NCBI GenBank assembly: GCA_017936385.1
Contig: JAGBFQ010000024.1
Coordinates: 4,927-68,926 of the forward strand
Length of the DNA stretch: 64,000 nucleotides
Direction of reading: 5' to 3'
From: Rikenellaceae bacterium
GTDB lineage: Bacteria > Bacteroidota > Bacteroidia > Bacteroidales > Rikenellaceae
Positions 3,584 through 32,722 of this stretch are shown here, in pieces. The position numbers and the translations under genes were made by a program. Positions within the stretch are counted from its first letter, which is position 1; each line of letters begins with the position of its first letter. The notes beneath the pieces were generated by a model. That model saw nothing but the letters and a program-made list of their open reading frames with translations. It did not search any database and was not told where the DNA came from.

Positions 3584-5446
3584 TTAAATCAAATCTTCAA
3601 CATAGTCGGCCTCAACCCTCAGGTTGTCGATAATGAAATCGCGGCGGTCGGGGGTGTTGGTACCCATATAAAACTCCAACATTTCGTGAATAGTATCATC
3701 CTTCGAGAGTTTGACTTTATCCAAACGAATGTTATCGCCAATAAACTCGCGGAACTCATCGGGCGAAATCTCACCCAAACCTTTGAATCGGGTGATTTCG
3801 GGATTCTTGCCCAACTTGGCAATGGCCTTTTGACGCTCCTCCTCGCTGTAACAATAGATTGTCTCCTTCTTGTTGCGCACGCGGAACAGCGGAGTCTGCA
3901 ACACATACAAGTGGCCCTTGCGAATCACGTCGGGGAAGAACTGCAGGAAGAATGTCAACATCAGCAGACGGATGTGCATACCGTCCACATCGGCATCGGT
4001 TGCAATCACAATCTTGTTGTAACGCAGATTCTCGACATCCTCTTCGATGTTAAGTGCGGCTTGAAGGAAGTTGAACTCCTCATTATCGTACACCACCTTT
4101 TTGCTGTGGCCAAAGCTATTGAACGGTTTACCACGCAGCGAGAACACCGCTTGGGTCAACACATTTCGACTTTTGGTAATCGAACCACTCGCCGACTTAC
4201 CCTCGGTGATGAACAACATAGTCTTTTCGGCCAAATCGCTCTTATCGTTACGGTGAATCTTGCAGTCCCTCACTTTTTCGTTGTTAAGGCTCACCTTCTT
4301 GGCATTCTCGCGTGCTTTTTTCTGCACACCCGAAATCGCTTTACGCTCCTTCTCATTCTCGGCAATCTTACGTCCCAACGTTTCGGCCGTCGTGGGGTTC
4401 TTGTGCAGGTAGTTGTCGAGGTGTTCGCCCATAAAGTCCACAATGTAGTTTCGCAGCGACACACCCGGTTCAATCTCCTTGCTACCGAGTTTAATTTTGG
4501 TTTGCGACTCAAACACGGGGTCGGTAACTTTGACCGCCACAGCCGCGATTATCGAAGTTCGGATGTCCGAAGCGTCGAAATCCTTGCGATAAAACTCCTT
4601 GATAGTTTTGGTCAAAGCCTCACGGAAAGCCGCCTGATGGGTACCTCCCTGCGGAGTGTATTGACCGTTGACAAACGAGAAATAGGTTTCGCCGTAGCTT
4701 GTACCGTGGGTCAACACAATCTCTATATCCTTGCCCGTAAGGTGGATGGGTGCATAGAGCGGCTCCTCGCCCAAACTCTCGTTCACCAAATCCAACAGAC
4801 CGTTCTTCGACACGTAGTTCACGCCGTTGAAACGGATGGTAAGTCCCGAGTTGAGGTAGGTATAGTTCTTAACGAGCTGTTCAACGAAATCCAGATTATA
4901 GCTATACTCACCGAACACCTCCTTATCAACTTTATATCGGATGCAGGTTCCGTTCTTCTCACTCAAGCCACTCTCCCATTGGTCGCTCTGTTCGAGTCCT
5001 TGAGCAAAAGTTACGGTATGCGCCTCGCCATCGCGCACCGAGCGTGCCGTAAACTCGCTCGACAGCATATTCACAGCCTTGACACCAACACCATTCAAAC
5101 CCACGGTTTTCTTAAAAGCGGAACCTTCGCCATATTTTGCACCTGTATTCATCTCGCTCACCGCCTTGGTCAGCGAGTTCAGCGGAATACCTCGTCCATA
5201 GTCACGCACGGTAACAAAATCATCCTCGATGGTGAGTTCAATCTGTTTACCGTTGCCCATGATAAATTCGTCGATAGAGTTATCCACGACCTCTTTGATG
5301 AGGACATAGATACCGTCATCGGATTGCGAACCGTCGCCGAGTTTGCCGATATACATACCCGGACGGCGGCGAATATGTTCACGCGGGTTAAGCGTGATAA
5401 TATCGTCGTCGGTGTAGTTATTGATTTGTATTTGCTGTTGGCTCAT
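3584..5446 (-). CDS. parE: DNA topoisomerase IV subunit B (GyrB/ParE family)
   Basis: 620 aa. GHKL ATPase motif EVVDNSIDE and Toprim motifs EGKSASG and [12 protein letters not shown]. The short (ParE-like) length is paired with parC. Confidence 0.85.
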
Positions 5447-14955: not shown

Positions 14956-14980
14956 ACCATTCAACCACAAAACAAAAAAA

Positions 14981-15014
14981 GCAGTCTGACAAAGTTTATT
15001 GTCAGACTGCTTTT
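14981..15014. terminator. bidirectional rho-independent terminator; marks the left edge of the AT-rich island and ends the T6SS-like operon
   Basis: GCAGTCTGAC-AAAGTTTATT-GTCAGACTGC hairpin, flanked by AAAAAAA on the left and TTTT on the right. Confidence 0.85.
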
Positions 15015-15041: not shown

Positions 15042-16346
15042 CTAATACGCCTCAACCCTTAATTTCACTCCTCCGATTGAGATTATATCACCAGGTCTTA
15101 TCTCCATTCCCTCTTGTGAAACCATATCGGAATTAACAAATGTTCCATTAAGCGAACGTGTCCATATTTCTTTAGACTCCTTGCACCATTGGCCATCACG
15201 GATATACCAAATATCCCTTTCGCAATCCAATTCCAAAGTACAATGACGACGAGAAATATACGTGGATGCTAATTCCGATAATTGTATCATATTAAAAACG
15301 GAATTATCAGCACGACCAATCGTTATAATACGTCTTGGAGACTGTGCAATTTCAGGCAATCTATAATATTTACCACAATCATCGCCTTGCATTACATGTA
15401 ACACCAATCCATTTTGAATAACTATTGGAGCTTCAACCTGACTATCTCTTGCGCCTTTGTAAGGATAACAGTTTGCGGGCATTTTATCGAGCAGTTCATC
15501 AATATTTCTTGCTCGTTTGCTTGCATCTGCTTGCAAACAAGCATTCAGAATACTTAACCACATTTCACTATTTTCATCCCTCAACAATAGGTTGCTATTC
15601 CACTCATTATTCCTTGCGCGTGTTTGATACAGAACCCAATCCGAGTCCGTATTCAATGGTCCAAAGGGCAACTCACCTGTCAATAGCTGATAAAGAATAA
15701 CTCCAAACGAAAATATATCAACCGTAGGCAAAATGGTAGAACATTTCTCAATGCGATATAATTCGGGAGCTCGATAAGCTTTCGTACTATCTACCGTTCT
15801 CATCTGCCTTGAGCTATTATCAATGGCGCCACGTCGCCCAAATGTCACATAATTAGTTATCACAGCATGGTCGCCCTCTGTAATCAACACATCCTCGGGA
15901 GTTAATTGACCATGTACTTTTCCCGATTTATGCAAATCTCTCAAACCATACAGAATCTCCTTCACTACTTTGATTGTATTCAGCCTTGGATTTGACATCA
16001 AGTGCGACAACTCTTCCGAACTACAATATTCCATCAACAAATATGGATTACCATTCACACGTCCCGAGTGTGTGATGGTTGTCAAATAATTACTCTTAAT
16101 CCTACAACTCTTTATTTCATTCTCGGCCGAATGCAACATACTTTGACGTAGACGAGATTCCACATCCCAAAGTTTGAGTAGTTTTAGAATATACTCTTTT
16201 CCTGAAGTATCATTCACTTTGAACTTTTGGTCGGTTTGAGAGAAACCCAATACCCGTTCCACTCTAAACTTACCATCTATCATATCATGCATGCGAAAAT
16301 CGCAGCGTTGAACTATATTATTTTTCATATCATATTCATTTTTCAA
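15042..16346 (-). CDS. Ser/Thr protein kinase-like domain (predicted pseudokinase) fused to a C-terminal FHA domain
   Basis: 434 aa. The kinase fold is recognisable (YILK lysine, YRAPE, DIFSFGVILYQLLTGELPF). The catalytic loop reads HGQLTPED instead of HRDLKPxN, and DFG is replaced by TNY. The C-terminal FHA is canonical (IGR...ISRRHC...SLNGTFVN). Confidence 0.85.
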   Translation of the reverse strand: MKNEYDMKNNIVQRCDFRMHDMIDGKFRVERVLGFSQTDQKFKVNDTSGKEYILKLLKLWDVESRLRQSMLHSAENEIKSCRIKSNYLTTITHSGRVNGNPYLLMEYCSSEELSHLMSNPRLNTIKVVKEILYGLRDLHKSGKVHGQLTPEDVLITEGDHAVITNYVTFGRRGAIDNSSRQMRTVDSTKAYRAPELYRIEKCSTILPTVDIFSFGVILYQLLTGELPFGPLNTDSDWVLYQTRARNNEWNSNLLLRDENSEMWLSILNACLQADASKRARNIDELLDKMPANCYPYKGARDSQVEAPIVIQNGLVLHVMQGDDCGKYYRLPEIAQSPRRIITIGRADNSVFNMIQLSELASTYISRRHCTLELDCERDIWYIRDGQWCKESKEIWTRSLNGTFVNSDMVSQEGMEIRPGDIISIGGVKLRVEAY

Positions 16347-16379
16347 GTATTACCCAAAGAGATTACAACACATCAACAA

Positions 16380-16823
16380 TTATATTTTTCGTGTTTTAAT
16401 ATTAAATTCAAAGAGTCGATTTCCCATTTTGATAATATCCCCCGGTTCCAACTTAATTCCGGCGCCAGCATGGACATAAGTTGAATTATCATGTGAACGG
16501 TCCTCAATGAACCAGTGGCCATCAGAGAAGAAGAAACATGCTTGTTCTTCATCATCTATAGACCTATCATGCGGCACGGTGTTTTGACGCGAAAGATAAA
16601 CCTCTGCACCTTCTTCATAAACCTCCTCCGGCATTTCACGCTCTCCGGGTTGTGCTATTGGTCGTAACGTACAATAAGGTATCTCCTCTTCATTGTAGTC
16701 AAACACTTCCTCCTCTGCAACAGGAACTTTTGTCACAATCTCATCTGTCATCTCTGCCAAGCAATTCGGGCAGATGTGCATCCCATTTATTACGGGATAG
16801 CCACAATTATTACATTGTATCAT
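16380..16823 (-). CDS. zinc-ribbon protein with a C-terminal degenerate FHA-like domain
   Basis: 147 aa. N-terminal CNNCGYPVINGMHICPNC and an acidic linker. The C-terminus (FFFSDGHWFIEDRSHDNSTYV...GDIIKMGNRLFEF) has FHA-like periodicity but lacks the S-x-x-H pair. Confidence 0.65.
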   Translation of the reverse strand: MIQCNNCGYPVINGMHICPNCLAEMTDEIVTKVPVAEEEVFDYNEEEIPYCTLRPIAQPGEREMPEEVYEEGAEVYLSRQNTVPHDRSIDDEEQACFFFSDGHWFIEDRSHDNSTYVHAGAGIKLEPGDIIKMGNRLFEFNIKTRKI

Positions 16824-16863
16824 TTGATTGATTATTAGTTCATTTTTGATTAAAATTCAACAC

Positions 16864-17610
16864 CTATATTGATTGGTTTAACATATACTCAAATGCTTTT
16901 TCAGCTTGTAGTTCTTCACGAGTAGCATTCCAACCATCATCTATTTTTGTCAGAATCTCCTTATTCTTATTTTCAATTTTCTCACCTACACGACTTATAC
17001 TATCTTTGGCCTTTTTAATAGTTCGAGCGAAATAGTCGTCAAATATTTCTATACATTTAAATTTTTCTGATGACTTTACTACCTTTTGAGTCAATGTTGA
17101 CACACTATATCCACAGCGAGAACAGAGTATATTTTTAAAATTTATAATAGCAGGTTTGATGCTTCCGACAGGAATATATTTAGCAAGCTTTGCACCTGGT
17201 ATAGCTCCTACTAGGTTTAAAAAACCACCAAGGACATCACCTACAGCAAAACACCCAACAGCCAAAGCTAAACTACAAACCATTCCAATTGGCCCTGGAA
17301 CAAAACTACCCACTTCTGCTGCCGACTTCAATATGACTAATTGTATATCAGCAACGCATTTTGACAAATCTGCTGCGATATTAATAATGTCATCTATATT
17401 GCCTTTCTTTAAAGTGATAGCTAACTTGTCTAATAGGGAAAGAATTTCATCCCATTTTGTAAGTATTATGCTTAATCCAAAAGGATTAGTCCATTTACAA
17501 TTTGCCAAATCGGACTTTATTCCTTCAACACCTGCTCTTTTTAAAGTAGTATGAAACTGCCTTATAACATTACTTAGGCCTTCTAGAATTTCAGTTGATA
17601 TAGTAGCCAT
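16864..17610 (-). CDS. hypothetical helical protein with a central glycine-zipper / predicted TM hairpin
   Basis: 248 aa. The hydrophobic Gly-rich core is VGSFVPGPIGMVCSLALAVGCFAVGDVLGGFLNLVGAIPGA, flanked by charged helical regions. No family recognised. Confidence 0.65.
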   Translation of the reverse strand: MATISTEILEGLSNVIRQFHTTLKRAGVEGIKSDLANCKWTNPFGLSIILTKWDEILSLLDKLAITLKKGNIDDIINIAADLSKCVADIQLVILKSAAEVGSFVPGPIGMVCSLALAVGCFAVGDVLGGFLNLVGAIPGAKLAKYIPVGSIKPAIINFKNILCSRCGYSVSTLTQKVVKSSEKFKCIEIFDDYFARTIKKAKDSISRVGEKIENKNKEILTKIDDGWNATREELQAEKAFEYMLNQSI

Positions 17611-17618
17611 GCAAATGA

Positions 17619-19307
17619 TTAAGATATGGTCAATTGATAACTAAAACTCTTTCTCAACTCAATATTAATCTTCAAATAATTGAAGAAATCGGAATTATTA
17701 ACTTCGGTTTTCAAGGCCTCCGACAGGATATTGAAATGTATGTTTATACACTTCTCAATATGGCCATCGATAGGAACATAGCTCTCGGAAAGTGATATAT
17801 TGCAAGAGTTGATGGCTTCTTCGCCAAAAGCACGCATGAATTCTACTTTGCAATATTGCAACAGGTCGATTTTCGTAAACAAACGGTCGTTGCTATTCAC
17901 AATATGCCTTACCAACTCTTTACGAGTATTCAAGTCCTTGATTTTATTTCGTCCTCCGGTTGCATCTATCAATGCTTCTATATCTCCAACAGCAGCATTC
18001 GTCGATGTTAATTTGCCTCCACGTCTTAAAAGATTACCACGTTCTCCATTTGTCGTAAAATATGTCAGAACCATTGGTTGCTGATTATTTTGAGGTTTGC
18101 GTATAGCATATGCACCCCCATACGAACGAGGACGTTCTGAACGATACTCATCAAGTGAATCATAAATCTGCATCATCGAATGACGCAACGAGCGCAACAT
18201 TGCACCATCATGCAACGAATTACTATCCACAAATGCGTAGTAATCATTCACATAGTGATGATACAGACTGGTTATATCTTCACGTATACGCTCGTTGTCA
18301 TATTGGCTCACGTCAAAATCTCGGATAAAGTAATCTTGAGCCAACTCTTGATTTTGTACAACCTCTAAAAAATATGTATCTGTTTTATCATTCTCCAAAC
18401 GTTGTATCGGTTCGCTATAACTCAGTTTCACATTTTGAATATCATAATTCACAACCGGAATGCTATTCAACTGTATGGCTGTTTCAAGTGGTAATGAGAT
18501 ATTTTCAGACGACTTAATTCGTATCCACAAAAAGCGATTACCTACAAACGGTTCTATTACCTCTTGTGCATAGGAGTCCATTATCCATGCCGGTATTTCG
18601 CCACGATTGAGAGTCCGTTTATTGGAGCACTTCCCAAATCGGTAAAGCCACAACCCATAATAAACCAAACTTTCTTTCCAAAACTCCTTTAGCATAAAAT
18701 TTGAATTCATTGCACATGGAGTATCATCCATCACCAACGACATAGGAATCTGCACGTCACCCACTTCGGCCATGAGTTGGTTCGATGGTAATGGATGTGA
18801 AAAAGCGATTGTGACATCTTCTAATGTATTAACTTCCCCCAAAGCGTCAAATGCCAACCAAATTTCATGTTTGTGTCTATTTTCTGGCCAAGTAGCTTGT
18901 AATGGTGCCCTATTGGGTTGCAACAACGTATTATTCATAAAACAGGCAGCAATACGTCCGGGAATAATACGACTCTTAAAAATAGGACGGTAATTACATT
19001 TTGTTGCCTTATATGAGAACGCATCATTCTCATCAATGTAATAAGGGGTGTACTCCTGTCCATTGCCTATGCTCACCACCGTAACAGCGGGCTGTGCTTG
19101 CAAATTACCATGTTGCAAAACTTGATTGCAAAACTGTTCTGATAATTTCGCAACCGTTTGGTCCATTTTTCTCTCAATCTCACAAGATTGATGAGCCATG
19201 GCAACGAGCATCATTTTGGCAATAGGGTCAGATAACGAAATACGCTGTTCGTCCTGTTCCAAGGCTCGTTGCAAGTCGACTACTTTATTTCTTACTTTTA
19301 TGTCCAT
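17619..19307 (-). CDS. tssF: TssF-like T6SS baseplate subunit (gp6-like)
   Basis: 562 aa. The N-terminal pattern DPIAKMMLVAMAHQSCEIERKMDQTVAKLSEQFCNQVL...QPAVTVV parallels the conserved TssF DPyVErL..gfAFL...kLDdE.PelTe..l..L.P.yl..iPs block. Its start overlaps the tssE-like stop by 1 nt. Confidence 0.7.
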   Translation of the reverse strand: MDIKVRNKVVDLQRALEQDEQRISLSDPIAKMMLVAMAHQSCEIERKMDQTVAKLSEQFCNQVLQHGNLQAQPAVTVVSIGNGQEYTPYYIDENDAFSYKATKCNYRPIFKSRIIPGRIAACFMNNTLLQPNRAPLQATWPENRHKHEIWLAFDALGEVNTLEDVTIAFSHPLPSNQLMAEVGDVQIPMSLVMDDTPCAMNSNFMLKEFWKESLVYYGLWLYRFGKCSNKRTLNRGEIPAWIMDSYAQEVIEPFVGNRFLWIRIKSSENISLPLETAIQLNSIPVVNYDIQNVKLSYSEPIQRLENDKTDTYFLEVVQNQELAQDYFIRDFDVSQYDNERIREDITSLYHHYVNDYYAFVDSNSLHDGAMLRSLRHSMMQIYDSLDEYRSERPRSYGGAYAIRKPQNNQQPMVLTYFTTNGERGNLLRRGGKLTSTNAAVGDIEALIDATGGRNKIKDLNTRKELVRHIVNSNDRLFTKIDLLQYCKVEFMRAFGEEAINSCNISLSESYVPIDGHIEKCINIHFNILSEALKTEVNNSDFFNYLKINIELRKSFSYQLTIS

Positions 19308-19837
19308 TATTTATTATTTAAAAATGGGTCCATAAAGAATTCTACCTCACGATGATACTCTCCCTCGCGAGTACCAATATATTCATTATGGGTTAGCAAA
19401 CCTTTAACTAACACTCGAACAACATATTTACTGTTCTCGCCACGATGGGAATACTTATTTTTCTCCATACTTAGTTGCACCTCTACTTCAAGTTGTTGCA
19501 GAAATGGGATATAGTATAGAATGCTATCACGAACACTCTTTTCGCATTGTTTGATGCCAGCTCGTGACATCTGCACCTTCTCCTCCCTGTTGTTTTTGTG
19601 TTTTACAATCTTAAAATCCGCTCCATGATTGAAATCAACCAAATTCATGGCAATAAATTCATTGTCCCAAAAGCTAAATCCAAATTCTTCATCAGCCTTA
19701 AAACGTCGAATACTTGTAAAAACAACTGTATCCACCCAATTGTCTATGACAGTGGACACTTGGGTTAACGGACGCTCAATCTGTAAATTCAATTGTTCGT
19801 CGTTGACAAAACGTATGGGAGAATTGCTATAATGCAT
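19307..19837 (-). CDS. tssE: TssE-like / gp25-like baseplate wedge protein
   Basis: 176 aa. Assigned from its position immediately upstream of tssF and weak gp25-like features (VIDNWVDTVVFT..., SVRDSILYYIPFLQQLEVEV). Sequence support is modest. Confidence 0.5.
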   Translation of the reverse strand: MHYSNSPIRFVNDEQLNLQIERPLTQVSTVIDNWVDTVVFTSIRRFKADEEFGFSFWDNEFIAMNLVDFNHGADFKIVKHKNNREEKVQMSRAGIKQCEKSVRDSILYYIPFLQQLEVEVQLSMEKNKYSHRGENSKYVVRVLVKGLLTHNEYIGTREGEYHREVEFFMDPFLNNK

Positions 19838-19839
19838 CT

Positions 19840-27586: not shown

Positions 27587-28993
27587 TTATTTAATTTCAT
27601 TTGTCCATTCTGTCACGCCGTTTTCTCCATTATGTCCTGTCAACTTAATGTAGAAGTTCTTTGCGGCAAAGAAGGGCTTCAATTCTATCTCAATCTCAAT
27701 ATCTTTGGTCTTTTCGTTACGAACAATCTTAGGATTGGAGTATCCCTCGATAAGTTTACCGGGACCTTTGTAATCCTCGAGAAAATCTATAACTTGTTCT
27801 CGAAGTTCTTGAGCTAACTTACCATTCCAATTTTTGAATGCTTCATCATTGAAGAAATTAGAGAATACCTTGCCTATCCAGTCGAATACGCGAACAATGG
27901 GATACTCTTGCAAACCAATAGTTGCACCATTATAAAGTGAGCGGTTCGAAAAGGCCATTACTCTATTTTCCTCAAATGTCATAGGTACGACACCCTTGTC
28001 AATCAAAGCGGTAAGCTCGGACTTGAGCAAATCAAGACGAGTGCCTTTTGCCATATCTATTGTGCCATATTTCTTTCCGGCAATACCTTGTGAAATCGGA
28101 GTTTCATCTGTATTGCTCATACGACCGGCAATAGCTGCGGAAGGGGGCAGGAATAAATCTTCTTCCTCCTCATTATTTTCATCCGATTTCTTACGACCAA
28201 GAATATAGTTACAAGCCATAATAACGTTGGCCAAGTAGGCGTCCGTATCACTCAAGTTGGCTTTATCCAAACCCTTGTTCAGAAGTTTAAGTGTAGGCGA
28301 GTCAGCATAATCCGTAACCAGCATTACTTTGTTTCGATACGCCATCTGTCCCCACATATTCACCACCTGCTTGCTACCCAAATAACCTGGGCTTACAAGA
28401 AGTGAATAATTCTCTTTCAACGACAGACGGTCGTAACTTCTGTTCAACTCATCACGTACTGCTGCAAATACACGACCATCAGGGTCTCCCAAATCCTCTT
28501 TATCTACGTTTATCAGATTCAGACATTGGAGTTTTGCTTGACCTGAGTTTGCAAAGAATTCTCCAAGCGAACGATAAGCAGTTTCCAATTTGCGAGTCTG
28601 CTCATGCACACTACCAAGATTTTGAAGTAGGTTCTTTTCAGCAGCCTTTGCAGCCTCTTGACACTTCTCTACAGCTTCAGACGCAGTTGTAGCCTCACTA
28701 TCAAGGATATTCAGCCACATGAGCAAATCTGTCTTCAAACGTTTACGTTGTTCTGCAAATTCACTATCTTGCAAAAAGATTTTTTTTGCAGCTCTGCTTT
28801 CGGGATTCATATTCTCCAATCCGTCTGCCATCGTTTCCAAAAGGTCGAAATCGCCATAGTCTTCCAAACCTTCTATGCTTTCTTTTAAACGTTCAGCAGG
28901 ATTGTCAATTTTCTTTATCTCTTCCAAATAAGCACTTTCGGCTGTTGTAACAACGCTCGCGGCTTGTGCTTGTGGCATCAATTCTTCTGACAT
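27587..28993 (-). CDS. tssC: TssC contractile sheath large subunit
   Basis: 468 aa from the internal Met (MSEELMPQAQ). The ORF-track start at 29092 would overlap tssB by 71 nt. Size and position after tssB fit, and the conserved-looking core is VTDYADSPTLKLL...ACNYILGR...GIAGKKYGTIDMAKGTR. Confidence 0.8.
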   Translation of the reverse strand: MSEELMPQAQAASVVTTAESAYLEEIKKIDNPAERLKESIEGLEDYGDFDLLETMADGLENMNPESRAAKKIFLQDSEFAEQRKRLKTDLLMWLNILDSEATTASEAVEKCQEAAKAAEKNLLQNLGSVHEQTRKLETAYRSLGEFFANSGQAKLQCLNLINVDKEDLGDPDGRVFAAVRDELNRSYDRLSLKENYSLLVSPGYLGSKQVVNMWGQMAYRNKVMLVTDYADSPTLKLLNKGLDKANLSDTDAYLANVIMACNYILGRKKSDENNEEEEDLFLPPSAAIAGRMSNTDETPISQGIAGKKYGTIDMAKGTRLDLLKSELTALIDKGVVPMTFEENRVMAFSNRSLYNGATIGLQEYPIVRVFDWIGKVFSNFFNDEAFKNWNGKLAQELREQVIDFLEDYKGPGKLIEGYSNPKIVRNEKTKDIEIEIELKPFFAAKNFYIKLTGHNGENGVTEWTNEIK

Positions 28994-29021
28994 AATTATA
29001 TCTGAATTTATCGGGTTTACT

Positions 29022-29471
29022 TTATTGATTTTTCTCCAACTCTGCAAGAAGTGCTTGCAATGCAACAACCAGGTGTTTCCTGCTTTCTTCATCTTCGAAT
29101 GCGCGTCTAAGAACTTTATTCTTAATCAACTGTTGCTCAATCGCATTATAAGAGTCAATAGCTGCTTTTTGTTGACCCAAATAAGCACTTTGCTTTATCA
29201 GTTCTTTATCATCAAAGTCCTTAATCGCATTGAATTTGAAATTCTCCTTTATAGGACGACCTTCCAAATCCAGCATTTGCACATTGCGTTTTTCGGGTTG
29301 GTAGCGTTCAAAGACATCCTCCATAGTTTCGGGTTGAAAAACTTCACCCGGTTTAACCGGTGCCACGTCCGTAAACTGGTCTACATAAAGAGTTCTGTTT
29401 TGTGGAAATTCAATAATCCCATCTACTGCCTCAGCATCGAGGACTTTCGAAATTACTGTTTTCTTTGCCAT
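29022..29471 (-). CDS. tssB: TssB contractile sheath small subunit
   Basis: 149 aa. FKFNAIKDFDDKELIKQSAYLGQQ resembles the TssB F.smdDF.P..va.qv..L block. It lies directly upstream of tssC. Confidence 0.7.
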   Translation of the reverse strand: MAKKTVISKVLDAEAVDGIIEFPQNRTLYVDQFTDVAPVKPGEVFQPETMEDVFERYQPEKRNVQMLDLEGRPIKENFKFNAIKDFDDKELIKQSAYLGQQKAAIDSYNAIEQQLIKNKVLRRAFEDEESRKHLVVALQALLAELEKNQ

Positions 29472-29498
29472 ATTAGTGATATTTTAAGTGTTTATTCT

Positions 29499-31751
29499 TT
29501 AATTCGAATGTGATACATCCCATTTAAGTTCATCTTGTTCACTTATTGTGAGGGTCACACTATCACCCTCGTTCAACTCACCTGAGATTATCATCTTTGA
29601 TAATGGTCGACGAATATCCTTTCGGAGAATTCCAAGAATAGGTCTTGCTCCATACTGAGCATTAAACCCACTCATTGCAATCTTGTGGACAGCCTTATCA
29701 TCAACAGTAAGTGTAATATTTTGTTCTTCCAAAGTTTTCAACAATCCCTTCAAGTGAATATTGAAAATCATCGTTACAATCTTCTCGTTGATTGGTGCGA
29801 AAGGAACAATTTCAGTAAGGCGAGCCAAAAATTCCGGACGGAAATGTCCTTGCATCACTTCAAGCATATCATTATGTGTCGGGACAATATTTTTTGCAAA
29901 TTGTTCAAACACATATTGACTACCAATATTGGAAGTGAAAATAATTAACGCATTAGAGAAATCGCCCACACGACCCAATCTATCATGTAACTTACCCTCA
30001 TCAAGAATCTGCAAGAATAAGTCAAATACTGAACGATGAGCCTTTTCAATTTCATCAAAAAGCACAATAGAATATGGTTTCTGGCGGATTTGGTTTACCA
30101 ACAAACCACCTTCTTCATAACCAACATATCCTGGAGGCGCGCCATAAAGCAGAGCCACCGAGTGCTCTTCCTTATATTCCGACATATCAAATCGAAGAAT
30201 TGCTGTATCATCCTGGAATAAAAACTCCGCTAATGATTTTGCAAGTTCGGTCTTACCTGTTCCAGTAGGACCGAGGAAGAAGAAACTTCCGATAGGTTGT
30301 CCTTTTTTGTTCAATCCGGAACGAGACTCATAAATCGAATCCAACACCGCTTTGATTGCATGGTCTTGACCGACTACACGTTTCTTCAGTATATCCTCCG
30401 CATTAACAAGTCTATCACGTTCTGCCGCTTGAACATTACCTAACGGGATACCTGTTTTTTGCGACACAACCTCCATCAGATGCTCGACCCCTACAATATC
30501 TTTCTTTTCTTCAGGATTCAAATCATTTTTGATTTTCAACAAGGCCATTGTCCTATCTATCAAATCTATTGCAGAGTCAGGCAGATGTTTTTCACTGAAA
30601 TATCTCTTGGCAAGTCTAATTGAATTTATCGTAAAATCTTCCGAGACCGTCAAATTATGGAATGTTTCGAATGATTTTACAACAGATTGAAGAATAATGT
30701 TGGTGGCATCAACAGAAGGTTCCTCGATAATAATACGCTCAAACTTGCCTAAGATTTCTTTATCCGTTTCTATATTCTTTGTAAATCCTTCTATCGAGGA
30801 GGTACAAATACACAACAAACCTTGATTCAACGAAGATTTCAAAAGGTTAATTGTACCATTGAGTGTACCCTGTTTATCCATTAATTTATCGAATGATTCA
30901 ATAACAAGAATCGCATTATCCTTGTCAGATAACTCATCCAATATTTTTTTCATTCGACCCTCAATTTCGCTTTTGTACGAAACGCCAATAGACAAAGCAA
31001 TTGTATCAAGTTCATAAACCTGTGCATTTTGCAGATAAGTAGGAACAACGCCTTTCGATATTGCTTGCACAAAAGCATTCACCAATGCAGTTTTACCGAC
31101 ACCCGATTCTCCTGTTATAAGAATATTGGATTTAGTTTTACGTCCAAGAATTCCATAAATTTCTCCAAGCTCTTTCTCAAAACCAATAGTTTCAGACAAT
31201 TGTCCATCGGATTGTTGCTGATTCTTAAGAATGCAATAACTCTCGATACTTTTACCCGCAGAATTTTTTGAACGTTTTTTCACTTCGCCATTAGATGTAT
31301 TACCTCCTATAACGTTTTGACTTCCACAAGCAGCAACAATACTTTCTTTTTGAAGCGGCAATGTTTTCAGCTGTTCAAATGTAAATCCGACACCAGGAGT
31401 TACAACTGCTATAAGTAGTGAGATAGCGTCAATCGACTCTTTCTTGGCTGCGGCACGAATACTATCAGCCTCACTAACAACTGCCTTTGTCAATGCTGAA
31501 AAACCTTTAGCTGAAGAATCAGAACTTTTCTTGGACATTTTAATTCGCATGTCAGCCCACTCCAATATATAGTAATAATCCGCATCTAAAGTCTTCTCAA
31601 CAAAAGAAACCAAACCAATATCTTTGTGTAAAAGAGCCTTCAAAACATGAGCCGGTTCTATGGCCGCATTCATATTCTCTTTTGCATACGCCTCTGCTAT
31701 CTGAAAAACTTCAATTACACTTTCGTCAAATCCGTCTAATTTATTGGTCAT
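29499..31751 (-). CDS. clpV: ClpV (TssH) AAA+ sheath-recycling ATPase, ClpB family
   Basis: 750 aa. Clp_N-like N-domain, D1 Walker A GESGVGKT and D2 Walker A GPTGTGKT with Walker B VLFDEIEKAH. The D1 Walker B reads ILVIESFD (degenerate). Confidence 0.9.
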   Translation of the reverse strand: MTNKLDGFDESVIEVFQIAEAYAKENMNAAIEPAHVLKALLHKDIGLVSFVEKTLDADYYYILEWADMRIKMSKKSSDSSAKGFSALTKAVVSEADSIRAAAKKESIDAISLLIAVVTPGVGFTFEQLKTLPLQKESIVAACGSQNVIGGNTSNGEVKKRSKNSAGKSIESYCILKNQQQSDGQLSETIGFEKELGEIYGILGRKTKSNILITGESGVGKTALVNAFVQAISKGVVPTYLQNAQVYELDTIALSIGVSYKSEIEGRMKKILDELSDKDNAILVIESFDKLMDKQGTLNGTINLLKSSLNQGLLCICTSSIEGFTKNIETDKEILGKFERIIIEEPSVDATNIILQSVVKSFETFHNLTVSEDFTINSIRLAKRYFSEKHLPDSAIDLIDRTMALLKIKNDLNPEEKKDIVGVEHLMEVVSQKTGIPLGNVQAAERDRLVNAEDILKKRVVGQDHAIKAVLDSIYESRSGLNKKGQPIGSFFFLGPTGTGKTELAKSLAEFLFQDDTAILRFDMSEYKEEHSVALLYGAPPGYVGYEEGGLLVNQIRQKPYSIVLFDEIEKAHRSVFDLFLQILDEGKLHDRLGRVGDFSNALIIFTSNIGSQYVFEQFAKNIVPTHNDMLEVMQGHFRPEFLARLTEIVPFAPINEKIVTMIFNIHLKGLLKTLEEQNITLTVDDKAVHKIAMSGFNAQYGARPILGILRKDIRRPLSKMIISGELNEGDSVTLTISEQDELKWDVSHSN

Positions 31752-31878
31752 ATCTAAACAATTAAAAGGTTAATGTAAGTTAGGTTATATTTACACAAAC
31801 TCACGGCAAACATCAAGACCTAATTTTAGTTATGCTGATAAACATTCATTCCAAGAACAAGTGTTTCACCATTCATAA

Positions 31879-32448
31879 CTATATTTTGCCAATATCATTT
31901 TTACTAATTTCCACACATATATATCCAAACAAATTCAGATATACACCAACCATTGGTTTTCTATCTTCAACATAACACAACTCCCCACACAATCCTTTCA
32001 ATGGTCCACGTACTATTTCTATTTTTTCGCCCAATTCAAACACTGTTTCAGCTACTTTGACCTTCGAGTCTGCATTACTTAACATAAATTTCAACCTATC
32101 AATCTGCTCTTCAGGTATTATTGCTGCCTCAGACTGTCCTGGATACGACAATAGTTTATAAACAAAGGAGTATGATTTTATCTCCTGCTCAACACGTTTA
32201 TTCACGTACGCAAAAACGACCATCGGGATAACAACCTTTTCTATTCTCTTTTTACGGTCGCTCCATTGGTGTATTTCAGTTTGTGTCGGCACATAATTTC
32301 GAATTCCCAACTTGGTCAATTTCTCACTCGTTTTCTTCTCTGTATTCATTTGAACGAGCATCGCAATCCAATATTTAGGGCACGCTTCGCGTTCGTTTGT
32401 CACATCAACAAACGAACGGTCGCATTTATTACACCCAATATTAGACAT
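31879..32448 (-). CDS. UpxY-family (NusG-like) transcription antiterminator; first gene of the T6SS-like operon
   Basis: 189 aa. NGN domain (WIAMLVQMNTEKKTSEKLTKLGIRNYVPT...VIPMVVFAYV) and a C-terminal KOW motif (GEKIEIVRGPLKGLCGEL). Confidence 0.8.
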   Translation of the reverse strand: MSNIGCNKCDRSFVDVTNEREACPKYWIAMLVQMNTEKKTSEKLTKLGIRNYVPTQTEIHQWSDRKKRIEKVVIPMVVFAYVNKRVEQEIKSYSFVYKLLSYPGQSEAAIIPEEQIDRLKFMLSNADSKVKVAETVFELGEKIEIVRGPLKGLCGELCYVEDRKPMVGVYLNLFGYICVEISKNDIGKI

Positions 32449-32467
32449 TTTATCGGCCTATTTCTAC

Positions 32468-32488
32468 ACATCTTCTAAAAGGAGATGT
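32468..32488. repeat. inverted repeat, left arm (IR-L) of the putative inverton
   Basis: ACATCTTCTAAAAGGAGATGT is the exact reverse complement of 32645-32665. Confidence 0.9.
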
Positions 32489-32598
32489 ATATAGGGCGTA
32501 TCATAATGTAAAATAATTAGTTTATGAATGCTAAAGTCAAATAAAATGGTGTAATATGTATAAAAAAGATGATTAAATAGATATTTATTTGTTTTATA

Positions 32599-32631
32599 AT
32601 TGGGTGGAAATAAAAAAAATACATATCTTTG
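32599..32631 (+). promoter_or_regulatory. Bacteroides sigma-A type promoter inside the inverton, currently facing away from the operon
   Basis: ATTG (32599-32602), a 21-nt spacer, then TATCTTTG (32624-32631). This matches the TTTG / TAnnTTTG consensus on the plus strand. Confidence 0.55.
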
Positions 32632-32644
32632 TGAAATATAACAC

Positions 32645-32665
32645 ACATCTCCTTTTAGAAGATGT
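32645..32665. repeat. inverted repeat, right arm (IR-R) of the putative inverton
   Basis: ACATCTCCTTTTAGAAGATGT is the exact reverse complement of 32468-32488. Confidence 0.9.
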
Positions 32666-32722
32666 ACATTAAGTTATAAACGCAAAGGGGACGGGTTGTT
32701 TTACGAATAGTTTTCACACAAA

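Follow-up and report, generated by a model that had tools for sequence, protein, structure and literature searches.

In the 64,000-nucleotide stretch of Rikenellaceae DNA analyzed here (henceforth the window), a type VI secretion system (T6SS) operon is headed by upxY, which encodes a 189-aa NusG paralog of the UpxY family and lies directly behind an invertible promoter. From our analyses, upxY is likely to act as a locus-specific processive antiterminator within a portable cassette that combines the invertible promoter, upxY itself, an ops-like site inside its open reading frame (ORF), and a long cargo operon. The linkage of UpxY with T6SS is conserved across many organisms and is no one-off. 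We found hundreds of metagenomic homologues of the window UpxY with 56-68% identity, and UpxY homologues that are 54-67% identical lead syntenic T6SS loci (L009-L016, L017, L019/L020, L021/L022, L024, L025, and L026 of our collection). The usual order in these loci is a tyrosine recombinase, a gap of ~290 bp with inverted repeats of 21-27 nt, UpxY, an FHA/kinase module, ClpV, TssB, TssC, and the remaining genes; the repeats in the ~290-bp gaps have the same ATCTYCT...AGRAGAT core as the repeats of the window. The window upxY is the first gene of a long operon behind an invertible promoter, and the same order is found in 11 related loci. An earlier note on this DNA had supposed that a capsule UpxY was co-opted in this very genome, which does not hold, as a separate non-capsule clade already heads T6SS loci widely; the note's placement of upxY behind an inverton, at the lead of a T6SS operon that is long and AT-rich, is confirmed.

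The module between UpxY and ClpV (~10 kb; 9326-19246 in L017 and 10595-20394 in L009) encodes an FHA protein, one or two Ser/Thr kinases, a PP2C protein, another FHA protein, an FHA-trypsin protein, a WG-repeat protein, and an outer membrane protein, together with a protein of ~420 aa. This module is missing from the window, where there is only a unique 127-bp spacer. In Candidatus Cryptobacteroides faecipullorum (L017), all genes of the locus share a strand and follow the window gene for gene at 41-97% identity (e.g., ClpV 75%, TssC 88%, Hcp1 97%, and TssF 64%), with the module still in place ahead of clpV. L021/L022 are compact independently of the window, with UpxY directly before ClpV and a junction of 8 bp; this form adjoins conjugation genes (TraM and a TraG-like coupling protein) and a recombinase, and is borne on an integrative and conjugative element (ICE). 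A close homologue (E <= 1e-45) was found in none of 400 other sampled Bacteroidales species-representative genomes, and among 150 genomes of the same family only one had a match at E <= 1e-30, with 39% identity. A single scan of genome contigs returned two loci. Because the species representatives are nearly without homologues, the distribution of the clade was read from metagenome contigs. The rarity among species representatives fits a patchy horizontal spread.

The identity of the 189-aa protein was examined with family models, structure prediction, and phylogeny. According to Pfam, the NusG NGN domain occupies residues 25-119. The UpxY family model of NCBIfam (NF033644) matched with 132.3 bits (cut-off 100), spanning residues 27-185 (model positions 1-163 of 164) and covering the KOW part with GEKIEIVRGPLKGLCGEL. 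The scores against the models of LoaP (NF033641; 50.4 bits, cut-off 125), NusG (TIGR00922; 30.7 bits, cut-off 135.7), and RfaH (TIGR01955; 22.1 bits, cut-off 144.5) all stayed far below their cut-offs. In an AlphaFold2 (AF2) model made with 24 homologues as input (mean predicted local distance difference test, pLDDT, of 74.5), residues 1-21 are predicted to be disordered (pLDDT < 50), the NGN fold runs from residue 26 (about 26-124), and the KOW domain lies at about 140-188 with a beta-barrel at 142-188. The top Foldseek matches of the model were NusG and RfaH, and Spt5 structures were matched too. In the alignment of 24 clade proteins at ~60% identity, 36 residues are invariant, W27 among them. 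The UpxY proteins of Bacteroides fragilis (UpaY-UphY) are antiterminators of capsule operons, with YA, YB, and YE forming Class-1 (Saba et al. 2024, PMC11685472); the beta2-beta3 region of the window protein, VPTQTEIHQWSDRKKRIEKVVIP, resembles the Class-1 signature LPTQFVIRQLYKRR[R/K]RVEVP (PMC11685472). A zinc knuckle formed by N-terminal Cys residues (CNKC...C) was considered and rejected because the Cys residues are not conserved in the clade.

The genome, of 1.84 Mb, has four NusG-like genes. Contig C33 holds the housekeeping NusG, which has rplK and rplA next to it and scores 173.6 bits against TIGR00922 (cut-off 135.7), so that the window protein is an additional paralog; two further UpxYs, on contigs C2 and C13, head capsule loci with a sugar transferase, a UDP-glucose dehydrogenase, and a Wzx flippase. 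There is next to no probability that the window protein is the general NusG of the cell or a second, redundant one: both have NGN and KOW folds, but the window protein falls far below the NusG cut-off while passing the UpxY model, it is surrounded by an inverton and a T6SS instead of the secE-nusG-rplK neighbourhood, a bona fide NusG sits beside rplK/rplA, and a very long branch parts the two in the tree. The model scores and the separate NusG on C33 refute housekeeping NusG as its identity. By its sequence, the protein is a true UpxY-type, specialised NusG paralog, and general NusG is excluded. On these points the earlier note had judged well, as the NGN domain (Pfam, NF033644, and AF2) and the KOW part (NF033644 and AF2) that it had read at a UpxY-like length are both present, and both the UpxY model and the tree place the protein with the specialised paralogs, far off NusG.

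The tree comprised 92 UpxY-like proteins (maximum likelihood, IQ-TREE, LG+G4, quick search, NusG outgroup) from 80 metagenome loci (27-60% identity), the loci whose genomic context was compared, and the three other paralogs of the genome. The window protein falls within a 33-row clade with a Shimodaira-Hasegawa-like approximate likelihood ratio test (SH-aLRT) support of 99, in which 12 rows are T6SS-linked, seven are recombinase-linked with other cargo, 14 are unlabelled, and none is a capsule row. All 18 capsule-labelled rows, including the genome's own two, lie outside this clade, and the cargo in the window is a T6SS and not capsular polysaccharide genes. The capsule labels are crude, being assigned by BLAST to the capsule-locus ORFs of this genome, and 54 of the 92 rows are unlabelled; the non-capsule character of the clade is thus well supported but not exhaustively proven. 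Clade members, mostly with an upstream recombinase, also head unrelated long operons. Close UpxY relatives head a set of M15 peptidase, STAS-kinase, and phosphatase genes (L006, L023), and the other cargo includes a kinase and M48 protease set (L035, 5184-9107), DUF445 (L039, 5263-6174), a dynamin-like GTPase (L041, 7260-8960), MORN-repeat and kinase genes (L049, 4850-13548), and a 1106-aa AAA-AAA-trypsin protein (L050, 10538-18046). Some of these non-T6SS operons look like defence or signalling systems.

We then turned to the site at which UpxY could be recruited. The opsX of Bacteroides is an element of ~40 bp in which a pause-hairpin region is followed by a non-template-strand hairpin, 5'-YGCGNAGCR, and specificity depends on the ~40-bp element, the hairpin region included (PMC11685472). 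The same work prints opsE as ...CTGCGAAGCATA and opsA as ...ccgcgtagcgca, and in capsule loci the pause comes first, the upxY start codon following it at a distance of 9 to 111 nt (PMC11685472). The earlier note had looked to the ~50-nt leader for a conserved ops-like element; the search found it not in the leader but inside the upxY ORF, at codons 11-24. On the minus strand, two arms (32408-32418 and 32390-32400) form a perfect 11-bp hairpin, CGTTCGTTTGT-TGATGTG-ACAAACGAACG, which runs straight into CGCGAAGCG (32383-32391), a fit to YGCGNAGCR, and the element codes for S-F-V-D-V-T-N-E-R-E-A. The clade form is a 9-bp hairpin and then CCGCGAAGCG (consensus TCGTTTGTC-AATGG-GACAAACGA-CC-GCGAAGCG-CA), and in 24 of the 27 distinct clade members its GCG begins at the same place, 20 nt ahead of the invariant Trp27 codon. 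The 12-mer consensus of the clade, CCGCGAAGCGCA, is identical to B. fragilis opsA (ccgcgtagcgca) at 11 of 12 positions and has the GCGAAGC core in common with opsE (CTGCGAAGCATA). Variants of the core, namely GGCGTAGCC in L017, L019, and L026 and GCCGTAGGC in L045 and L066, keep the mini-hairpin symmetry. In the divergent L045/L066 subclade, GCCGTAGGC takes the place of GCGAAGC and is preceded by a short GTCG-TTGA-CGAC hairpin; here the intragenic element may belong to another specificity class. Only the M15-peptidase group, which keeps UpxY, is missing the element.

In all 24 loci an in-frame ATG precedes the hairpin by 9-14 codons (mostly 11), and the motif ends only 12 nt before the Trp27 codon, at which the confidently modelled first NGN strand begins; the element is therefore intragenic. 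The encoded peptide falls largely within residues 1-21, which the AF2 model predicts to be disordered. For the covariation test, a 21-sequence alignment was compared with 500 shuffles and with slid controls. The stem pairs in 91% of cells, and five of its nine pairs are changed on both sides; none of the 500 shuffles reached the pairing or the covariation score, and the slid controls paired in only 22-47% of cells. The compensatory changes are UA<->CG and UA<->AU at 13:8, and the stem reads TTTG/CAAA in the T6SS group versus TCAG/CTGA in the other-cargo group. The share of the commonest codon among 4-6-fold degenerate codons is 0.90 inside the element versus 0.45 over the remaining codons of upxY (Mann-Whitney p = 2e-4), and inside the element Arg is always CGC and Gly always GGG. 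These patterns point to selection on the element at the level of its nucleotides. In the 17.8-kb island, YGCGNAGCR occurs in one copy only, that of the element. The predicted site thus matches opsX in sequence and structure, conserved and covarying, inside an ORF instead of a leader, and by analogy it is a probable recruitment site for UpxY.

Conceivably, the hairpin and GCGAAGC could instead be a translational or mRNA-stability element, or the site of another protein, which tunes the dosage of UpxY, with UpxY recruited elsewhere or without a site. An RNA hairpin ~33 nt after the start codon could throttle translation, the characterised opsX sites are all upstream of the start codon, and the M15-peptidase group has UpxY without the element; yet the hairpin is immediately 5' of the motif as in Class-1 opsX, the consensus is nearly that of opsA (11 of 12 positions) and fits the published YGCGNAGCR motif, GCGNAGC is kept beyond the needs of a simple RNA stem, and the variants GGCGTAGCC and GCCGTAGGC retain the mini-hairpin symmetry, for which reasons we hold a pure dosage element to be improbable. 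The coordinates of the recruitment site that we favour, and of the other features of the locus, are given in Table 1.

Table 1. Features of the upxY-T6SS locus in the window (positions of the window; a dot marks features without a strand).
Feature	Position	Strand	Evidence or description
Operon-end intrinsic terminator	14977..15014	minus	16-bp stem, then T run
Fifteen-gene T6SS operon	15042..31751	minus	Pfam; 16.7 kb, co-directional
Hairpin in the hcp1-hcp2 gap	27096..27129	minus	15-bp perfect stem, -24.4 kcal/mol, z -6.4
Non-coding gap between upxY and clpV	31752..31878	minus	127 bp, stops in all three frames
upxY (189-aa UpxY-family NusG paralog)	31879..32448	minus	ORF, Pfam, NCBIfam, AF2, Foldseek
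Ops-like element	32380..32418	minus	Codons 11-24; inverted-repeat pair and fold z -3.5
Proximal inverted repeat	32468..32488	.	19 nt upstream of the upxY ATG
Invertible segment with promoter	32489..32644	plus	-7 box TATCTTTG; assembled orientation OFF
Distal inverted repeat ACATCTCCTTTTAGAAGATGT	32645..32665	.	21 nt, 100% complementary to the proximal repeat

Perfect 21-nt inverted repeats enclose the 156 nt directly upstream of upxY, and the placement of upxY as the first ORF after an inverton, as originally read, was borne out. The Bacteroides -7 box TATCTTTG at 32624-32631 on the plus strand is the only TAnnTTTG within 32441-32700; the promoter thus faces away from upxY and the switch was assembled in the OFF state. 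In the ON state, the proximal repeat would become part of a leader of ~48 nt, in whose RNA it folds as a 9-bp imperfect hairpin. In L009, L012, L015, and L016, the stretch from the recombinase to upxY holds inverted repeats with the ATCTYCT...AGRAGAT core that enclose 154-175 bp. Three DNA runs from gut metagenomes (X2-X4) were examined as Logan contigs only, and their contigs break at or near the two repeats (32459-32665), those of X2 and X4 at the repeats themselves; the locus turned up in no RNA run. Two loose ends (X3 and X4) read GTAGAAAT(A) after 32665, which in reverse complement gives the letters to the left of the proximal repeat. These ends match the flipped (ON) junction and are weak evidence that both orientations exist in the source samples.

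No recombinase adjoins the window locus, and the sole homologue in the genome of the locus-linked tyrosine recombinases is an orphan (C17:24690-25895, 53% identity). Repeats of the same family (ATCTYCT...AGRAGAT) flank ~210 bp upstream of the capsule upxY on C2 (C2:148789-149040), and the repeat occurs once on contig C36 (C36:70081). Because the repeat family is shared and there is only this one recombinase homologue, a single orphan recombinase may flip the capsule and T6SS promoters in trans. The shared repeats around the C2 capsule promoter, a recombinase that could serve both promoters, and a clade 12-mer nearly identical to the capsule opsA would also suit a T6SS-borne UpxY acting mainly in trans (e.g., on capsule operons) and not on its own operon. 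This appears very unlikely, as the hairpin region needed for specificity (PMC11685472) is present only in the T6SS upxY, a scan for GC[GC]-type ops-like motifs found nothing within 400 nt upstream of the genome's own two capsule upxY genes, and the linkage of UpxY to its cargo is kept across hosts with different capsule repertoires.

Downstream of upxY, the 127-bp gap and the 15 minus-strand secretion genes over 16.7 kb are as the earlier note had described them. The order of the operon is ClpV, TssB, TssC, Hcp1, Hcp2, VgrG, DUF4280/PAAR, an M23 peptidase, a 316-aa protein, a TssK-like protein, a 176-aa protein, a TssF-like protein, proteins of 248 aa and 147 aa, and a kinase-FHA protein. The island, upxY included, has ~37% GC in a genome of ~50% GC, and the whole of it arrived as one unit. 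In the 127-bp gap we found no ORF, no TAnnTTTG box, and no homology to related loci except at the start of clpV, and its fold is no better than that of shuffles (z -0.5). A deletion scar or remnant ORF was looked for in the gap and not found by homology, ORF, or significant fold. Only 8-15 bp separate upxY from the next gene in the relatives, where the second gene encodes an FHA protein or ClpV and not UpxZ. In the window, stops run through the gap in all frames and clpV comes next, leaving no ORF at the position of UpxZ; the absence of a UpxZ-like partner, also claimed earlier, is upheld by gene position alone. The small ORF after the genome's own capsule upxY and the small ORFs of the island had no family-model hit. 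The 129-aa ORF after the capsule upxY (C2:149785-150174) and the N-terminus of the gene that follows, a Bac_transf sugar transferase (C2:150645-151652), share IHLY...W[VI]A[FY]..SAY.L, and neither protein matches a UpxZ model. The shared region may be a UpxZ-like domain that stands free in the first protein and is fused in the second.

The hairpin after hcp1 (27096-27129) is without a U tract. L021/L022 (z -6.5; L021 15313-15375) and L017 (z -3.8; 4597-4724) have strong hairpins at this position too, unrelated in sequence, and across the three diverged loci the hairpins are of 14-15 bp with no clear U tract following. We consider this hairpin a candidate attenuator or mRNA stabiliser that would set the ratio of Hcp1 to the downstream products, and it is plausible that it is read through by a UpxY-modified polymerase. 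The suggestion that the operon needs protection at this hairpin therefore stands in part: the hairpin exists and recurs in two other loci, and it lacks a U tract, the need for protection being an inference.

Taken together, the proposed sequence of events is as follows. A tyrosine recombinase acting in trans (possibly the C17 orphan homologue) would flip the 156-bp segment to ON, and RNA polymerase would start ~48 nt upstream of the upxY ATG, judging from the -7 box. About 115 nt into the transcript, at codons 11-24, polymerase would pause at the hairpin and CGCGAAGCG, by analogy with Class-1 Bacteroides opsX, whose architecture of a pause hairpin and a non-template-DNA hairpin the element appears to share. 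UpxY from earlier transcripts would then load onto the paused polymerase at the ops-like element, and the modified polymerase would resist pausing and termination over the 17-kb, 37%-GC foreign operon, the strong post-hcp1 hairpin included, until transcription stops at the terminator (15014-14977). Since upxY is the first gene of its own operon, a positive feedback loop could sharpen the ON state. Such a cassette brings along a promoter switch, an elongation factor, and a loading site, and could allow any Bacteroidales host to express a long foreign operon. On balance, we lean towards the broader view that the UpxZ-less UpxY branch is a self-contained mobile module (recombinase, inverton, upxY, and a dual-coded opsX-like site in the first ~24 codons) that drives long non-capsule operons in gut Bacteroidales, its cargo being T6SS with or without the FHA/Ser-Thr-kinase/PP2C genes, kinase/M48 sets, the dynamin-like GTPase, and the AAA-trypsin giant protein. 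If so, the T6SS would be under two coupled controls, phase variation and processive antitermination, independent of the TetR regulators proposed for genetic architectures 1 to 3 (GA1-GA3).

Several observations weigh against antitermination by UpxY from the intragenic site. Pausing, the loading of UpxY at the element, antitermination with read-through, and the feedback loop are steps that we infer. As terminator-like sites inside the operon number 12 versus 10.4 in shuffles, which is no excess, the need of the operon for antitermination is plausible and not demonstrated, and the hcp1 hairpin has no U tract. The covariation signal may come largely from a single split, with few independent events, as two subclades carry most of it. 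With 10 copies in the window versus 7.8 expected, the bare YGCGNAGCR 9-mer shows no enrichment and was rejected as evidence by itself, so that the weight of the motif rests on its conservation. The characterised capsule ops sites all precede the start codon (+9 to +111), which makes an intragenic one unprecedented in that data set (PMC11685472), and the site could serve another role. Lastly, upxY of such cassettes can be dispensable, since it is degenerate in some antibiotic-resistance gene cassettes (PMC8748976).

This last point bears on the possibility that upxY is a passenger of a promoter cassette that captured the T6SS, the invertible promoter alone driving the operon. Before resistance genes, the same type of cassette carries upxY intact, fused, or fully degenerate (PMC8748976), and the window, with no excess of terminator-like sites in its operon, is already without the adjacent recombinase and the FHA/kinase module. 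Passenger status is unlikely, if somewhat less so than a dosage role for the element, when set against an intact ORF with 36 invariant residues over 24 proteins at ~60% identity, the nucleotide-level selection on the ops-like element, and the retention of upxY in every T6SS locus examined, also in the window and L021, which were compacted independently and have nothing else left between upxY and clpV. A locus-specific antiterminator is the reading that we retain.

Little is understood of how Bacteroidales T6SS are regulated; TetR-family repressors are all that the key papers propose. A lead NusG paralog and an inverton at a widespread T6SS architecture would amount to a testable two-layer control, in which an ON/OFF flip is followed by processive elongation over 17-27 kb of an AT-rich foreign operon. 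An ops-like site within the coding sequence of the antiterminator itself would widen the recently defined opsX concept, as one stretch of 35 nt must code for a peptide and also specify two hairpins, one of RNA and one of the non-template DNA strand. Since the putative pause of the polymerase falls within a region that is translated, it is also relevant to how transcription and translation are coupled in Bacteroidota. In addition, the annotation 'UpxY' is unsafe as a capsule marker.

Among known systems, RfaH is a NusG paralog that loads at paused polymerase via a non-template-strand hairpin (GCGGTAGC) in its 12-nt target ops, GGCGGTAGCnTG, and activates long, horizontally acquired AT-rich operons (surface and secretion) in Enterobacteria. 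The window protein is likewise a NusG paralog, with a putative non-template hairpin (GCGAAGC versus GCGGTAGC in RfaH) at which loading is proposed by analogy, and the role proposed for the UpxY cassette is akin to that of RfaH for xenogeneic operons of Enterobacteria. Unlike RfaH, which is encoded away from its targets, the window upxY is the first gene of its putative target; its motif is CGCGAAGCG and not ops GGCGGTAGCnTG, and its KOW domain is modelled as a beta barrel, the model giving no sign of an autoinhibited alpha-hairpin state.

The Class-1 UpxY of B. fragilis and the window protein are alike in several respects: the same family model, NGN and KOW domains, the position as first gene behind an invertible promoter, the PTQ...basic beta2-beta3 hairpin, and a putative site in which a hairpin stands immediately before YGCGNAGCR, with a consensus that equals opsA at 11 of 12 positions. 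Unlike capsule UpxY, the window protein has a T6SS and not polysaccharide synthesis as its cargo, has no UpxZ partner by position, and belongs to a separate clade without capsule-linked members. Its ops-like site is in the ORF (codons 11-24) instead of 9-111 nt before the start codon, and the switch is a cassette with a linked or orphan tyrosine recombinase.

With the T6SS-iii of Bacteroidales (GA1-GA3), the window shares the TssB/TssC/Hcp(TssD)/VgrG/ClpV gene set, and some of the related loci are ICE-borne. The papers on these systems propose TetR-family regulators (Coyne 2016, PMC4714493; Garcia-Bayona 2021, PMC8102008), and NusG, UpxY, antitermination, and invertible promoters for T6SS are unmentioned in PMC4714493 and PMC8102008; in contrast to these accounts, the T6SS of the window lies behind an inverton and upxY. 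A link of UpxY, NusG, or antitermination with T6SS in Bacteroid* was undescribed in the full-text literature searched, with most subscription journals outside it, and the impression that the association had not been reported before was sustained within that scope.

Cassettes of an invertase, an invertible promoter, and upxY are known to precede antibiotic-resistance genes on Bacteroidales ICEs, where upxY is read as a relic of glycan loci that is often degenerate, and T6SS is named only as content of the variable regions of ICEs (Yan et al. 2022, PMC8748976). Like these cassettes (PMC8748976), the loci described here combine a recombinase, an inverton, upxY, and a non-capsule cargo, a layout that is often ICE-borne (L021/L022 lie beside TraM/TraG); unlike these cassettes, the window upxY is intact and conserved, with its own ops-like site, and its cargo is a complete T6SS operon. 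In essence, UpxY before non-capsule operons is already known from the ICE resistance genes, and the departures here are the cargo, the lack of UpxZ, the clade, and the intragenic site.

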